Origin: Escherichia coli
GTDB lineage: Bacteria > Pseudomonadota > Gammaproteobacteria > Enterobacterales > Enterobacteriaceae
Length of the DNA stretch: 64,000 bases
NCBI RefSeq assembly: GCF_036507355.1
Contig: NZ_AP027877.1
Strand: one strand, 5' to 3'
This document shows positions 52,401 to 58,400 of the stretch, in pieces. The stretch's first letter is position 1. Every line of letters begins with the position of its first letter. Position numbers: made by a program.

Positions 52401-55400
52401 GGCTCCGGCGGCGGGGGTGCATACGATAATAGCTATTCACACACGTCAGGACGTGGCGGGCACGGAGCTAATGGCGTGCTGGTAATTCGGGAGTTCATGT
52501 AAATGAATGATATCTATGCAGTTGTTGATAATAACGTTGTTATTAATGTCATTATCTGGGACGGAATTTCTGAATGGAAACCAGAGGCTGGTAATTTAGT
52601 TCCGTTAAACGGCGATGCTGGCATCGGTTGGTCATATTCAGACGGAGTATTTACCGCGCCACCTCCCCCAGAACGCTCTCACAACGCGTTAGTTGCGGAG
52701 GCTGAGCTGCAGAAATCAGCACTACTGACCGTAGCAAATAACACAATAGCACCGCTGCAGGATGCCGTTGATTTGGAAATGGCGACAGACGATGAACAGG
52801 CGTTAATGCTGGCGTGGAAAAAATACAGGGTACTGCTGAACCGTGTTGATACCTCAGCGGCACCCGAAATAGAGTGGCCTACGCAACCGGGGGAGCGGGC
52901 CAGTTGATATCAGGCGCAGCGTCAGCATCAACTGCTGTCACTGCGTCGATGTAGTCGAGTACCGCATTCAGCCGCGTTTTTTCATCATCAGTCAGTTTGC
53001 GGCCTGCACTTCTCCGTTGACATCTTTGTTATATGGTACAACTGCGCAGAGGCCTGTCTCTTCAATTGTGCCAGTTGAATACTACGATACAACGCTCGGC
53101 CTTCCTGTTTGGTGGAACATAACCACATCCACATGGAAAAGAGCTGATGGTGTAGATGTATAAACTTAAAAAAGGCGCTTTTTAGCGCCTTTAAATTAAG
53201 ATATTCTTTTAGCTATAGAATGACCTATATTTATAAACGGTTTTTCTATTACGTTATATATCAAGTAAGATAGGCTTATAGAAATTATGAGCGATGATAT
53301 ATAAATGGCAAACGATCTATGTTCAGTGCTAATACCAATACTGGAACCGTAAAACTCAATAAACTGTATAACAGGAACATGAATCAGATAAAGTGAATAT
53401 GATATTCCACCAAGAGCAACAAGTGATTTATTGAATGAAATAACTTTATTATTTTCTAGAATAATAACACACAAAACAATCAGAAATGCAATATATGCAG
53501 ATCGCGTCAAACCATGTCCTTCAGACACCCCATTAAGCCAAAAAACAAACATCATTCCTAGAATGAAAACGCATAAACTATTTATAATAGAATTATTCAT
53601 TCTTTTATGCCTAAGTAAAGGCATTGTCTCTGATATAATCATCCCTAAAATGAAATCATATACTATAGGATTGCCTATGAATCCTATATGAGAAAACACC
53701 CCTGTTTTTGCAATATTGAATGATTGGGCGTCAATTACTACCGAGTGGTTAAAGTAAAGAGAAATAATTGTACTTACAGCAACTAGAAAACATGATGTGA
53801 TTAATACCCTGTATTTTATGCTTAATGACATGGATATTGCGAAAATAAAATAAAAATATATCTCGTACCCAAGTGACCATGAAACAATTAGCGTTCCCCA
53901 CCCATAATATGGCGGTAGAGTTGAGACATCTAAAGGGATGAGAAGAAATGATTTTATAATATTATTTATAGAAAAAACACCACCCCATGATACGCCTGTG
54001 TAAATATTGTGGTAAAAAAGAAAAACATAAACGCTTAATACTATTGCGTAAACAGGATAAATTCTAAAAAATCTCTTTACAAGAAATGAGGCGGTATTTC
54101 TTAAAGATGTTTTTGTAAAGTTTTTAGTTGAGTATGATATTATAAATCCGCTTATTATAAAAAACAATTCAACTCCAAATATAGCATTCGCGGTTATCCT
54201 GTCCATGAAAGAACCAGGATCTACTTGCCCGAAAAGACCTCTATTATGACCAATAGCTACAGCAAGAGCTGCAATTCCACGAAGCGCTTCTATTCCGTAT
54301 AATTTATCTGTTTTCATCAAGTAATATAGTTAGTAGTTGATAAAATTGTTGCTGGAGTCTACCACCAAGAGCTTGGATGATCGACCAGTTAGCATCTCAA
54401 GCTGTATGCGTGAGACAAAAACGAGACACACAAAGCTTTGCAAGTCTTTGCGCTGTTTACCTATGATACCTTCTCCTCAATCCAATCCGCCCACCACTGC
54501 ATCATTTCTCTGCGCTTATCGAGATACTGAGCATGGTTGTAAATCCCGCGCACAGATCCGCCGTTGGCATGTGCCAGTTGCACTTCAATAGCATCAGCAG
54601 GCCATTCGTGCTCGTTCATAATCGTGCTGAATTCATGCCTGAATCCGTGACCGCTTTCCAGACCTTCATAGCCGATTTGTTTGATCACAAGCAGTACAGC
54701 GTTCTCGCAAATTGGCTTCTTCTTATCGTTGCGCCCGGCAAAAACAAACTCTGATACTGGTTTGGTGATTGAACTTAGCGTAGTGAGAAGTTCAACTACC
54801 TGGTCTGACATAGGAACCACATGAATCTTGCGTCCCTTCATCACACTGGCCTCGATGGTGATAATCCTGTTTTCAAAATCGACGTTCTTCCATTGCATGG
54901 AACGAAGCTCTTTTGTTCTTAGTGCTGTGTAGCGTAAAACTTTGGTCGCAATGAGAGATACGATACTTCCTGAAAATGTTGCAAGTGCTTTGTTGAATGC
55001 CGGGATCTGGTCGGCAGGTAAAAACGGGAAGTTCTTCTTGCGGTATCCTTTCATGGCGTCTGCAAGGTCAGGTGCCGGGTTATATTTAGCCCTTCCGGTG
55101 ACAATAGCGTAACGAAAAACCTCGCCGCATCTTCTGCGGGCTTTGTTGGCTCGCTCCATTGCACCGCGATCTTCAAATCTTCGGATTACTTCCAGCAGTT
55201 GCATCGGCTCAATATCCTGAATTTCAAGACCGCCGATGATGGGTAAAATGTCGTCATCAAACATTTTGGCAAGTTCAGTTGCATAGCCTACTGACCAGAC
55301 TTGCTTCTTGTGCTCGTACCATTCCTTGTAAATCGCACTAAATGAATTGTTGTTAGACGAAGCCTTTTTCGCCTTTACCGGATCGATGCCAACCGAGATG

Positions 55401-58400
55401 TCTTTCCTCGCAGTCCATGCCTTATCCCTTGCTTCCTGCAAAGTCATAAGCGGATATTTTCCGACAGTCAGGATTTTCTCCTTACCGTCAATCTTGTAGC
55501 GAAGCTGCCATACCTTTTTCCCTGATACAGGGACATAAAGGTACAGGCCATTACCATCGAGTAGGCGGTATGGTTTTTCTTTCGGCTTTGCTGCTTCAAT
55601 CTGCTTAACGGTGAGCATGGGTAAAAATCCGGTGGGTAAAATTATTTTATCCACTTTTTACCCGTCATGGAGTGCGGCTGTCAACGATCTGACGCGAACC
55701 ATGACGAACCGTGAATATACGGAAGGCTTGATATTCAGGGGATTTTGCGGACTGGTACGGATGGGAGCGAACTGATAAATGGTGTCCCCTGCAGGAATCG
55801 AACCTGCAATTAGCCCTTAGGAGGGGCTCGTTATATCCATTTAACTAAGAGGACAATGCGGCATGAGTATACCCGCTAATGGACTGCGGGGTAAGTACGC
55901 TGCCGTGCGATTGCTTAAACCCTCGCCATTTATGCCGGGTTTTTATCATTTTTCTTAATGTTTTCCGCACGTTCTGCTTTTTGGCGTGCTTCTGCTTTGC
56001 GCTTGTTGCTCATGTCGTTACGGATCTGTGCATGACTCATTAACGCGAAGATAAAGGTGCCGCCGCAGATGTTCCCCGCTAAAGTAGGTAGTGCGAAGGG
56101 CCAGATGAAATCGCTCCAGTGCAGCGTGCCGTTAAACACCAGATAGAGGATTTCAACAGAACCGACAACGATGTGAGTGGTGTCACCCAGGGCAATAAGC
56201 CAGGTCATCAATATAATCACCACAATCTTTGCCGCACCCGCTGCAGGAAACATCCATACCATAGTGGCGATCAGCCAGCCGGAAATGATCGCGTTGGCAA
56301 ACATCTCGCTGGGGGTGTTCTTCATCACATCCATGCCGATTTTGACAAATGCATCGCGAGTTTCTTCATTGAAGATAGGCATATATTCAAATGCCCACGC
56401 CGCAATACCTGTCCCGAGAATATTACCCAGCAGCACGACGCCCCATAACCGCATAAGTAAGCCAACGTTGCTCATTGTCGGTTTTTGCATGACGGGTAGT
56501 ACCGCAGTCACGGTGTTTTCGGTAAATAATTGCTGGCGGGCCATAATGACGATAATAAAACCAAAGGTATAACCGAGATTCTCCAGCAAGAAGCTGCCCG
56601 GCACACCTTCCAGTTCGACATGAAATATCCCTTTTGCCAGTAATGAAGCGCCCATCGACAGACCCGCCGCAATGGCTGACCACAGTAGTGCCATTGCGTC
56701 GCGTTCCAGCTCTTTTTCACCATCCTGGCGGATATGCTCATGAATTGCCATCGCCCGGGAGGGGAGTCGATCTTCATCTATTTCTATTTTTTTGCCACGC
56801 TCTTTTTCTTCACTCTCAACTTCAATTTCGTCGCTGTGTTGATCAATTTTGTCGTTGTCCATGGTCTCTTCTCTTGAATTAGCACGTATAGCTAAAGCGT
56901 AGCGGCTTTTTTGCTCGCAACTGGCGGGAGTTACTCTGAAAATGTAGAAAAGGCCGCGTTTGCCTTTTTCTGTTTCCATAGAATCAAGTAGCCTACAGGG
57001 CGGCGATTACCAGGCTATGATCAAATCAGCAAATCAGGGCGTCTGGACATCAGTTGACGTGCTGTTACAATCGCCCACACCTAAACAGGCGGATACGGTA
57101 TCGTTCCGTCATGGATGGCAAACTGCATAAGCCATAAAAAAACAGGGAGACATTTATGAAGCTTCGCCTGTCGGCGCTTGCTCTGGGAACTACGCTTCTG
57201 GTGGGGTGTGCGAGTTCCGGTACAGATCAGCAAGGGCGTTCTGACCCGTTAGAAGGGTTCAACCGCACCATGTACAACTTCAACTTCAACGTACTAGACC
57301 CGTATATTGTTCGACCGGTCGCTGTCGCCTGGCGTGATTATGTTCCGCAACCGGCGCGTAACGGTTTGAGCAACTTTACCGGCAACCTTGAAGAACCCGC
57401 GGTGATGGTGAACTACTTCTTGCAGGGCGACCCTTATCAGGGGATGGTCCACTTTACCCGCTTTTTCCTGAACACCATTTTGGGGATGGGCGGTTTTATT
57501 GATGTTGCAGGGATGGCGAACCCGAAACTGCAACGGACTGAACCTCACCGCTTCGGTAGTACGCTTGGTCATTATGGTGTGGGTTATGGGCCGTACGTTC
57601 AGTTACCGTTCTACGGTAGCTTCACGCTGCGTGATGACGGTGGTGATATGGCGGATGGTCTTTACCCGGTTCTTTCCTGGTTGACCTGGCCGATGTCTGT
57701 GGGTAAATGGACGCTTGAAGGGATCGAAACTCGTGCGCAGTTGTTGGATTCCGACGGTCTGCTGCGTCAGTCGTCCGATCCTTATATTATGGTGCGCGAA
57801 GCGTACTTCCAGCGTCATGATTTCATCGCTAATGGCGGCGAACTCAAACCGCAGGAAAATCCGAACGCGCAAGCGATTCAGGATGATTTAAAAGATATCG
57901 ATTCTGAATAAGAAACAAATAAAAAAGGTGAGTCGCAAAACTCACCTTTTTTGTTGATATCACTCAATTATCACAAGCAAAAGGAGATAAACCGACAATG
58001 ACCTAGACGTAATTATGTAAAAATACTGATGTTCGTCACTGACTATTTCCGATATTCAGCTGTTGAAAAATCAAAAAACTGGAAAAATAATTTTAAATAT
58101 CATCAAAATTAACACCTAGCGCATATAGTTGATTAATTTCATTTTGATATTCAGCCTGGCGATTTTGAAGCCCTTCTTCAATTTTACCTTCGAGATCCTT
58201 AAAATGCTTATATATTTTTTGAGAATGGCCAACGTTAACTTTGTTACCGACTAAAGTAGAAACTATTTTTTTTAGATGGTCGCATTTGTATTTTGCATCG
58301 TCCACTTGAAAATCATATCTTATTGCTCGACCATAACGTTTAAAAACTTCGTTTGGTTCTCTCAGTCTTTCCCCGTTGAGTTCATTTACAAATTGATGAT

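Follow-up and report, generated by a model that had tools for sequence, protein, structure and literature searches.

An Escherichia coli prophage remnant integrated at argW carries, between its integrase and its tail-fibre module, a single gene for a stand-alone acyltransferase-3 (AT3) inner-membrane enzyme; from sequence comparisons we propose that this gene is lysogenic-conversion cargo, and that its product probably acetylates the O-antigen of the E. coli O77 group and Salmonella O:6,14. The gene lies in a 64,000-nucleotide stretch of one E. coli contig, hereafter the window. A minus-strand row of argW, the IntS integrase gene and the AT3 gene is followed by a terminator and the tail-fibre module, as follows.

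51570..52502, plus strand: glycine-rich tail-fibre gene, truncated by a stop at 52278-52280 (PHROG tail-fibre matches)
52503..52907, plus strand: tail-fibre assembly (chaperone) gene, 134 aa (PHROG 188, E = 8e-35; PGAP)
52879..53007, minus strand: inverted remnant of a second tail-fibre assembly gene (PGAP, identical segment in L001, L002 and L026; coordinates transferred by alignment offset from these annotated relatives)
53164..54329, minus strand: minimal exchanged cassette, comprising the terminator, the AT3 ORF and 12 nt of leader
53171..53192, minus strand: intrinsic terminator of the AT3 gene, a 9-bp stem with 5 G-C pairs, then TTTTTTAAGT (terminator scan)
53196..54317, minus strand: AT3-only membrane acyltransferase gene (the cargo), intact, 373 aa (PF01757, PHROG 3333)
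54318..54460, minus strand: intergenic leader, a putative regulatory region with one GATC inside
54461..55618, minus strand: intS-type tyrosine integrase gene, intact, 385 aa (ORF list, NCBIfam and PHROG integrase matches, PGAP)
about 55780-55796, minus strand: prophage attachment-site core, the 3' end of argW
55780..55854, minus strand: tRNA-Arg(CCT), argW (ARAGORN; the sole tRNA-Arg(CCT) found)

We identify the tRNA gene as argW because it is flanked by yfdC, mlaA and fadL as in K-12. The K-12 annotation has the CPS-53 prophage begin within the final 15 nt of argW, and Kapi1, Sf6, HK620 and KplE1 have a common 17-bp attB in this gene (PMC8787464); no second copy of the att core was found within the 64-kb window. 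The integrase ORF extends at most over 54461-55654 (minus strand), and the PGAP start in near-identical genomes, where the product is named “prophage integrase IntS,” sets the gene at 54461-55618. The protein is identical to the phage Sf6 integrase at 379 of 384 residues (99%), and the distance from int to att is 162 nt in the window and 161 nt in Sf6.

The original prediction of a very AT-rich AT3 gene beside the argW integrase is confirmed by ARAGORN, the ORF list and PF01757: the gene has 31% G+C and 23.5% GC3, against 47% and 51% for intS. The ORF behind the predicted 374-aa protein also stands, with one residue fewer; it spans 53196-54320 (minus strand) and opens with TTG followed immediately by ATG, and this ATG at 54317 is the start in the PGAP annotation of four genomes and in all database homologues, so the protein has 373 aa. 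The proposed HMM search yielded a full-length match to PF01757 (Acyl_transf_3; residues 8-355 against model positions 2-325 of 326, E = 1.1e-28), the sole Pfam domain in the protein, and the protein also falls in PHROG 3333, “O-acetyltransferase,” at E = 2e-86. The AT3 motifs R/K-X10-H in the first helix, FFXISG, and RXXR after the second helix (PMC7448272) appear as R13-X10-H24, F52FIISG57 and R82FFR85; among 36 homologues including Sf6 Oac, H24, R82, R85 and the F52FIISG57 motif are invariant, and R13 nearly so.

An AlphaFold model (pLDDT 90, pTM 0.91) predicts ten long helices and a short helix at residues 117-124, in agreement with the AT3 fold of ten transmembrane helices and a short re-entrant element after helix 3 (PMC9833829). 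The only significant PDB neighbours of the model are structures of HGSNAT, an acetyl-CoA-dependent transmembrane acetyltransferase (probability 1.0, TM-score only 0.40), consistent with a published fold unification (PMC12423673). In the model the chain ends at residue 373, directly after helix 10. Salmonella OafA and OafB (GtrC family II), which acetylate O-antigen and of which OafB is prophage-borne, share the catalytic motifs in their AT3 domain, and differ in having an 11th helix as well as an SGNH domain in the periplasm (PMC7448272); the Pfam search and the AlphaFold model found neither in the window protein, which is therefore not of OafA type. An “Oac/OafA type” assignment accordingly holds for the Oac-type architecture, AT3 alone with the FFXISG motif of unfused O-antigen AT3 enzymes (PMC7448272). 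It does not extend to orthology with Oac: the comparison with Sf6 Oac gave 37.7 bits and 31% identity across 81 residues, and Sf6 was not found among the tblastn matches of the acyltransferase at 1e-5. WecH scored 28.9 bits, an AT3-SGNH protein of O104:H4 33.9 bits, and similarity to OpgC was negligible; the acceptor cannot be assigned from sequence similarity.

The cargo is bounded by a leader that is kept and a terminator that is exchanged with it. The leader holds a promoter-like element, TCGATC (54384-54379), a 17-nt spacer and TGgTAGACT (-10 hexamer 54361-54356), which is a consensus-like match that a consensus promoter scan did not call, and which may serve as a promoter; it is also conserved ahead of the AT3 genes of strain Yu5 and Salmonella, and ahead of the gtrA genes of K-12, 300081 and 042. 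At the other end, the terminator scan made its call on the minus strand only; the plus-strand T-run is short (TTTAAATT), so that the “bidirectional” terminator originally described is only partly borne out. Comparison with the prophages of 042 and 300081, both of which bear gtr genes, places the left cassette breakpoint at 53163/53164, and comparison with Yu5, where another AT3 gene follows the same leader, places the right breakpoint at 54329/54330. The Salmonella copy of the region is 86% identical across 53141-54365. Between intS and the terminator lies a single ORF, which rejects a gtrABC glucosylation module in this slot, and the cassette holds no candidate partner gene.

Exchange of acyltransferase and glucosylation cargo, as the original prediction proposed, is seen directly in the prophage of E. 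coli 042 (O44), an O77-group strain (PMC7685785). Its baseplate, tail-fibre, tfa and tfa-remnant sequences are 98.25% identical to 51102-53163; directly beyond 53163, in place of the terminator and AT3 gene of the window, 042 has a terminator of its own and a gtr(type-specific)-gtrB-gtrA cluster, and the same promoter-like leader stands before the cargo. It differs in its integration site, the gtr cluster adjoining chromosomal ybhB with no integrase. This gtr locus beside ybhB is reportedly, from work by Wang et al. in 2007, the O44 glucosylation determinant. In K-12, the gtrA/gtrB/gtrS genes originally described beside intS agree with the annotation of CPS-53 (KplE1), with the gene order argW-intS-yfdG(gtrA)-yfdH(gtrB)-yfdI(gtrS)-yodE-tfaS'. 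CPS-53 is likewise a decayed prophage at argW that has retained O-antigen-modifying cargo, with intS and its flank 96.8% identical and the same promoter-like leader; its cargo is a three-gene glucosylation module, and homology to the window ends at the intS stop codon.

Such a swap is of an ordinary, well-known kind, and the arrangement is already known from Sf6, which has the same layout and a near-identical integrase: a plus-strand tail gene, a terminator, AT3-only oac on the minus strand, a short leader, a 385-aa int also on the minus strand, and the att core about 160 nt beyond. The two differ in their acyltransferases, which are not orthologous (333 aa for Oac), in leader sequence, in tail (a P22-like tailspike in Sf6, a Mu-like contractile tail with fibres here), and in the O-antigens of their hosts (flexneri-type in Sf6, O77-group clusters here). 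In layout, a gene between int and a convergent tail gene, the window slot is an argW cargo slot of the Sf6/CPS-53 type.

The argW/intS slot is a known cargo hotspot, and the proposed survey across E. coli genomes found gtr genes, other AT3 genes, AT3-SGNH genes, or nothing in it. Between intS and a tail-fibre or tailspike gene, O104:H4 carries a 636-aa AT3-SGNH protein (25% identical), Yu5 a 355-aa AT3 protein (27% identical), and strain S1 a 357-aa AT3 protein, all of them distant or unrelated alleles. The CUS-3 cargo in this slot, neuO, encodes a protein that to our knowledge is not an AT3 protein. NeuO is the K1 capsule O-acetyltransferase, regulated by a heptanucleotide repeat inside its gene (PMC9659370); S88 carries an acyltransferase fragment. 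The closest homologues in sequenced phages (46-47% over the full length) are acyltransferases, annotated as ExoZ-like and of putative function, of the P22-like Salmonella phages SI8, Si3 and S.Inf 5-2; these too lie between integration genes and a tail-fibre gene, in another phage type and host. Across four phage kinds, orthologues at 47-89% identity are always tail-to-tail with a tail-fibre or tailspike gene.

The acyltransferase gene stays intact while the prophage around it decays. The phage was of a type with a Mu-like contractile tail and fibres, and the tail-fibre module predicted beyond the terminator is in place (assembly gene at 52503-52907, tail fibre at 51570-52502); the prophage is defective, with an IS element at its left end, deleted tape-measure and baseplate genes, no second att copy, and a tail-fibre stop codon arising from a C-to-T change at base 709, where the L027 copy is open (310 aa) and otherwise identical at 931 of 933 positions. 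The identical acyltransferase protein is encoded beside intS in at least five different prophage deletion states. Its dN/dS is 0.10 against the Salmonella orthologue and 0.11 against Enterobacter, revealing purifying selection on the protein that, with a value of 0.10 across genera, has been long-term.

The hosts of the gene suggest what it acts on. The allele is rare: of 5426 complete genomes, 4 have it, and all four of these E. coli carriers have wzx/wzy of the O17/O44/O73/O77/O106 family. O77-group wzy occurs in 93 of the 5426 genomes, giving a hypergeometric P of 8e-8 for four carriers out of four, although the four may not be independent: their wzx, wzy and gnd alleles are the same, and C4 and GIMC1405, the pair that was compared, are 99.4% identical in their chromosomal flanks. 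Yu5, whose chromosomal flank matches the one in carrier GIMC1405 at 100% identity and whose O77-group cluster is the same, nevertheless has a different AT3 gene (27%) in the slot; O-type alone therefore does not single out the window allele. The Salmonella orthologue, 89% identical, belongs to another prophage, which is lambda-like and situated next to the hut operon, in serovars Carrau and Beaudesert. Carrau is O:6,14 (PMC8021552, PMC6300517), and Salmonella O:6,14 and the O77 group have a common four-sugar backbone (PMC4732683). As a positive control of the co-occurrence method, the O-antigen cluster of an E. coli with true Sf6 oac is of the O13/O129/O135 group, which has O-antigens related to the S. 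flexneri ones, going by the title of a reference in PMC4732683. What appears to be new here is the co-occurrence of the acyltransferase with the O77 group, together with an orthologue in Salmonella O:6,14 sharing that backbone; reviews of the O77 group describe glucosylation only, and no O-acetyl groups (PMC7685785). The carrier hosts thus suggest acetylation of one mannose-rich O-antigen.

We propose that a phage with a Mu-like tail would have integrated at argW through its Sf6/IntS-type integrase, bringing a fixed slot of three parts: a promoter-like leader next to int, a cassette with its terminator, and a tail-fibre/chaperone module. Recombination in the conserved flanks would swap the cassette for gtr clusters or other acyltransferases. 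By way of a pore formed by its ten helices, the enzyme would pass an acyl group, most likely acetyl donated by acetyl-CoA in the cytoplasm, to an acceptor that is most probably the Man-Man-Man-GlcNAc repeat common to E. coli O17/O44/O73/O77/O106 and Salmonella O:6,14. The modified O-antigen would be an altered receptor for the carrier and related phages, leading to superinfection exclusion, and the serotype would also change.

We consider it unlikely that the enzyme instead targets another envelope glycan, such as enterobacterial common antigen, colanic acid, capsule or osmoregulated periplasmic glucans, in which case the prophage position would reflect receptor modification of a different kind. 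AT3-only proteins act on many acceptors (PMC9558356, PMC9833829), the score of WecH, which acetylates enterobacterial common antigen, is nearly level with that of Oac, and the same argW slot holds neuO for K1 capsule acetylation in CUS-3 phages (PMC9659370); but the acyltransferase accompanies a single O-antigen backbone across two genera and different prophages, alternates with O-antigen gtr clusters behind a shared tail fibre, has the FFXISG motif of unfused O-antigen enzymes, and bears negligible similarity to OpgC. Transfer of a non-acetyl group, such as succinyl or propionyl, or dependence on an extra periplasmic partner, seems to us less likely again. The AT3 proteins OpgC and IcaC transfer succinyl groups, and a partner requirement has been proposed for stand-alone AT3 proteins (PMC9833829), whereas the cassette is one ORF and characterised AT3-only O-antigen enzymes of prophages, such as Oac, are acetyltransferases (PMC7448272).

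The decay of the prophage raises the further prospect, which we rate about as improbable as another glycan target, of a silent passenger: a gene recently inherited intact and unexpressed (for example H-NS-silenced), with no phenotype in this strain. At 31% G+C the gene could indeed be silenced, its ATG is preceded by no Shine-Dalgarno sequence, its promoter match is weak, and the prophage has the IS element, gene losses, tail-fibre stop and single att described above. A passenger of this kind is hard to reconcile with a dN/dS of 0.10 across genera, with acyltransferase and intS both intact in at least five deletion variants that lost neighbouring phage genes, and with a promoter-like leader kept across cargo types; low G+C, moreover, is usual for O-antigen genes. 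O-antigen acetylation thus remains the reading we favour, backed by the O-types of the hosts. More tentatively, the acyltransferase gene might determine an O-acetylated form, as yet undescribed, of the Man-Man-Man-GlcNAc O-antigen in the O77 group and O:6,14.

O-antigen modification by prophage genes shapes serotype, sensitivity to phages and recognition by antibodies, which is textbook knowledge in Shigella flexneri and Salmonella. The O17/O44/O73/O77/O106 serogroups are indistinguishable by O-antigen gene cluster; among them are urinary-tract strains of ST69 and the Shiga-toxin-producing strain of the 2025 haemolytic uraemic syndrome outbreak in France (PMC13188871). Our analysis yields a specific, cheaply testable prediction: the O77 group may have an argW-encoded acetylated variant, the same enzyme lineage serving Salmonella O:6,14. 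If so, acetylation could explain part of the serological heterogeneity in the “O77g” group, and a minor Salmonella group H factor separating serovars of the same formula, such as Carrau and Madelia. The locus is a clean, nucleotide-level example of one tail module whose partner cassette can serve either glucosylation or acylation, behind a shared promoter-like leader; if the proposal is true, the cassette would travel between unrelated phages and genera as a receptor-matched module, tracking its O-antigen backbone.

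The only tRNA gene in the window is a tRNA-Arg(CCT), which we identify as argW because yfdC, mlaA, a variable AT-rich stretch and then fadL lie to its right. From argW inward, the genes run as follows.

55780-55854, minus strand: tRNA-Arg(CCT), argW
54461-55618, minus strand: IntS tyrosine integrase, 385 aa (PGAP start and name, from near-identical genomes)
53196-54320, minus strand: acyltransferase-3 (AT3) ORF, starting TTG then ATG, the ATG at 54317
53192-53171, minus strand: terminator, hairpin and T-run
52879-53007: inverted remnant of a tail-fibre assembly gene, beyond the AT3 terminator
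52503-52907: tail-fibre assembly (chaperone) gene, beyond the AT3 terminator
51570-52502: glycine-rich tail-fibre gene, beyond the AT3 terminator

The original prediction of an AT3 gene adjoining the argW integrase, followed by a terminator and a tail-fibre module, is confirmed, and the gtr genes that it placed right beside intS in K-12 are indeed there, in the order intS-gtrA-gtrB-gtrS. A gap of 143 nt separates intS from the AT3 ORF, with no ribosome-binding site evident before the AT3 gene. The gene is as AT-rich as had been supposed (31% G+C and 23.5% GC3, against 47% and 51% for intS). The membrane acyltransferase identity also stands, but the predicted length of 374 aa becomes 373 aa, because annotated copies and all database homologues begin at the ATG at 54317; likewise the terminator is real but convincing in one direction only rather than bidirectional, the terminator scan having called the minus strand alone. 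The inverted remnant adjoins the intact assembly gene, as tfaS'/yfdK do in K-12, and looks like what is left of an invertible tail-fibre segment of the Mu G or e14 type; no invertase gene for such a segment is present.

The AT3 protein has a single Pfam domain, the expected Acyl_transf_3 (PF01757; residues 8-355, E = 1e-28), and falls in the PHROGs 'O-acetyltransferase' family (E = 2e-86); assignment to a curated NCBIfam family failed, yielding a sub-threshold SucT match and nothing else. Motifs that define AT3 carbohydrate acyltransferases (PMC7448272) are present as R13-X10-H24 in the first helix, F52-F-I-I-S-G57 and R82-F-F-R85, and an alignment of 36 homologues including Oac of Shigella phage Sf6 shows no variation at H24, F52, S56, G57, R82 or R85. 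The AlphaFold model derived from that alignment is confident (pLDDT 90, pTM 0.91); its ten long helices, with a short helix following the third, match the description of AT3 proteins in PMC9833829. A PDB sequence search found no chain similar to the protein. The only high-probability matches in a fold search were cryo-EM structures of human HGSNAT (probability 1.0, though TM-score about 0.4), itself an acetyl-CoA-dependent transmembrane acetyltransferase. The match agrees with the fold unification reported in PMC12423673.

Pfam finds no SGNH domain, and the architecture is therefore Oac-like rather than of the OafA or OafB kind. Of the predicted "Oac/OafA type", then, the Oac-like, AT3-only architecture holds and the OafA/OafB type does not; nor is the protein an Sf6 Oac orthologue, as the two align at 37.7 bits (31% identity over 81 residues) and a tblastn search did not recover Sf6. 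Assigning an acceptor by comparison with WecH (28.9 bits), OpgC (19.6 bits) or the AT3-SGNH protein of O104:H4 (33.9 bits) was uninformative, and because the characterised or annotated AT3 proteins compared all match only weakly, the acceptor is not nameable from sequence alone.

The integrase is identical to that of Sf6 at 379/384 residues, and the Sf6 order, tailspike(+), terminator, oac(-), leader, int(-) and attP core, is the order in the window; the attP core of Sf6 lies 161 nt beyond int, and 162 nt separate int from the argW 3' end here. Sf6, HK620, KplE1/CPS-53 and Kapi1 have a common attachment site (PMC8787464), and the interval between argW and dsdC is also the integration site of those CUS-3 phages that carry the capsule acetyltransferase gene neuO (PMC9659370). 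We counted the contents of this slot across complete genomes.

Occurrence of intS and cargo genes among 5426 complete E. coli genomes
Full-length intS: 1859
K-12-type intS-gtrA junction: 489
636-aa AT3-SGNH gene of O104:H4: 24
355-aa AT3 of strain Yu5: 5
AT3 gene of the window: 4
True Sf6 oac: 3

Among sampled loci, the slot is empty in O157:H7 and TUM12368, holds a short ORF annotated as an acyltransferase adjoining a tailspike gene in S88, and is IS1-disrupted with yet another AT3 gene in strain S1. Given these counts and this varied cargo, the site beside intS is a known, frequently used insertion point for surface-polysaccharide modification genes, and an acyltransferase there is not unusual.

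The proposed swap between gtr and acyltransferase cargo is seen directly at the nucleotide level. Window positions 51102-53163, from the end of a baseplate gene through the tail-fibre and chaperone genes to the inverted remnant, are 98.25% identical to E. coli 042. In 042 the equivalent of 53163 is followed directly by a separate hairpin, beyond which a gtr(type)-gtrB-gtrA cluster adjoins ybhB, in place of the AT3 gene; strain 300081 has the same junction. Compared with K-12, the shared sequence takes in the chromosomal flank and intS and ends at the intS stop codon. Compared with Yu5, a strain with a different AT3 allele, it extends across all of the leader as far as 54330, which is 12 nt ahead of the ATG; from there it is interrupted until position 51874, within the tail-fibre gene. 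The breakpoints against 042 and 300081 and against Yu5 delimit a minimal cassette at 53164-54329, comprising the terminator, the ORF and a few leader bases. The AT3 gene is interchangeable with gtr clusters behind one tail-fibre module.

The Russian isolates Yu5 and GIMC1405, the latter a carrier of the window's AT3 gene, have 100% identical chromosomal flanks and the same O-antigen cluster, that of the O17/O44/O73/O77/O106 family (O77 group). In the same prophage, however, their AT3 proteins are only 27% identical and their tail-fibre tips and chaperones differ too, so that tail-fibre C-terminus, chaperone and acyltransferase are exchanged as one block (window equivalent 51874-54330). This exchange is very recent, and the gene that modifies the receptor appears to move along with the tip that binds it.

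Upstream of the cargo lies a conserved element, TCGATC-17 nt-TG-n-TAGACT (54384-54356), which also precedes gtrA in K-12, 042 and 300081, as well as the Salmonella AT3 orthologue. We infer that it is a shared extended -10 promoter, although a generic promoter scan did not call it. A Dam site occupies its -35 position ahead of unrelated cargos, AT3 and gtrA, in both E. coli and Salmonella, and the putative promoter may be methylation-sensitive. Nothing supports phase variation of the AT3 gene: in a search for signals of the neuO or gtr kind, positions 53000-54500 proved free of tandem repeats and the leader to contain a single GATC.

The chromosomal flank (55855-63900) is at best 99.2% identical to any of the 5426 complete genomes and about 96% identical to the carriers C4 and GIMC1405, whereas the prophage end is 99.3% identical to GIMC1405 and 98.6% to C4. 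Because the prophage end is so much closer to the carriers than the flank is, we conclude that an uncommon lineage acquired the element by horizontal transfer. Within this flank, between mlaA and fadL, an AT-rich island (58000-59450; 32-35% G+C) contains ORFs of 111 and 277 aa; the same interval holds a single 415-aa hypothetical gene in related genomes and yfdF in K-12. It is a variable locus that may be disrupted in the window.

The prophage is a remnant of approximately 18 kb (about 37300-55780) with NinB, RusA, lysis, terminase, portal, protease and tail tube genes and a capsid/sheath region that is only partial; no early or regulatory genes were seen in it. An IS transposase gene (36425-37237) forms its left end, and the window holds no second argW att core, even with 2-3 mismatches allowed. 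Tape-measure, DNA-circularisation and baseplate genes present in C4 and GIMC1405 are missing, and the homology blocks 50135-51114 and 51102 onward have 13 nt in common (51102-51114), which suggests that the missing stretch was deleted between short repeats. A YmfQ-family gene is shortened to 148 aa. The tail-fibre gene matches an open 310-aa version in a different assembly (L027) at 931/933 positions but is itself a pseudogene: C-to-T at base 709 turns codon 237 into a stop (52278-52280), and the frame ends after codon 236. The exact AT3 protein lies beside intS in assemblies with at least five different deletions of neighbouring phage genes, and dN/dS is 0.10 in comparison with the Salmonella copy and 0.11 with that of Enterobacter. 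This AT3-only gene is real, intact and under selection in an argW slot of the Sf6/CPS-53 type; intact cargo in a decaying prophage matches neuO (PMC9659370) and K-12 gtrABS.

The gene very probably encodes an enzyme that acylates a surface glycan and serves as lysogenic-conversion cargo. More distant orthologues are invariably arranged tail-to-tail with a tail-fibre or tailspike gene, at a prophage edge (Enterobacter copy, 67% identical; Salmonella P22-like phages, 47%). All four complete carrier genomes have wzx and wzy of the O77 group, whose wzy occurs in 93 of the 5426 genomes (P = 8e-8, assuming independent genomes, although the carriers are not fully independent, O-cluster alleles being common to all four); C4 and GIMC1405, the only carrier pair compared, have 99.4% identical flanks. 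The Salmonella orthologue belongs to a lambda-like prophage adjoining the hut operon; its identity is 89% in protein and 86% in DNA, terminator and leader included. Carrau and Beaudesert are the only serovars named for it, the latter being O:6,14 in the Kauffmann-White scheme. Carrau is O:6,14 (PMC8021552; PMC6300517). According to two citing papers, on which this link rests, O:6,14 and the O77 group have a common four-sugar Man-Man-Man-GlcNAc backbone (PMC4732683; PMC7685785), so that the Salmonella orthologue lends independent support to the acceptor assignment. As a control, E. coli LD93-1, with true Sf6 oac, has the O13/O129/O135 cluster, whose O-antigens are related to those of S. flexneri, going by the title of reference 46 in PMC4732683.

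A strict correspondence of one acyltransferase allele to one O-type is weakened by Yu5, which is also O77-group; because it has the O cluster of GIMC1405 with another AT3, O-type does not single out one allele. Strain 042 is O44, hence a member of the O77 group, and carries this tail fibre together with a gtr cluster; PMC7685785 places the O44 glucosylation genes in a prophage, and reviews mention only glucosylation in the group (PMC7685785). On balance we favour, with some reserve, an enzyme that would O-acetylate the backbone of the O77 group and O:6,14. The interest of the AT3 gene lies not in its architecture but in a testable link to a particular O-antigen group.
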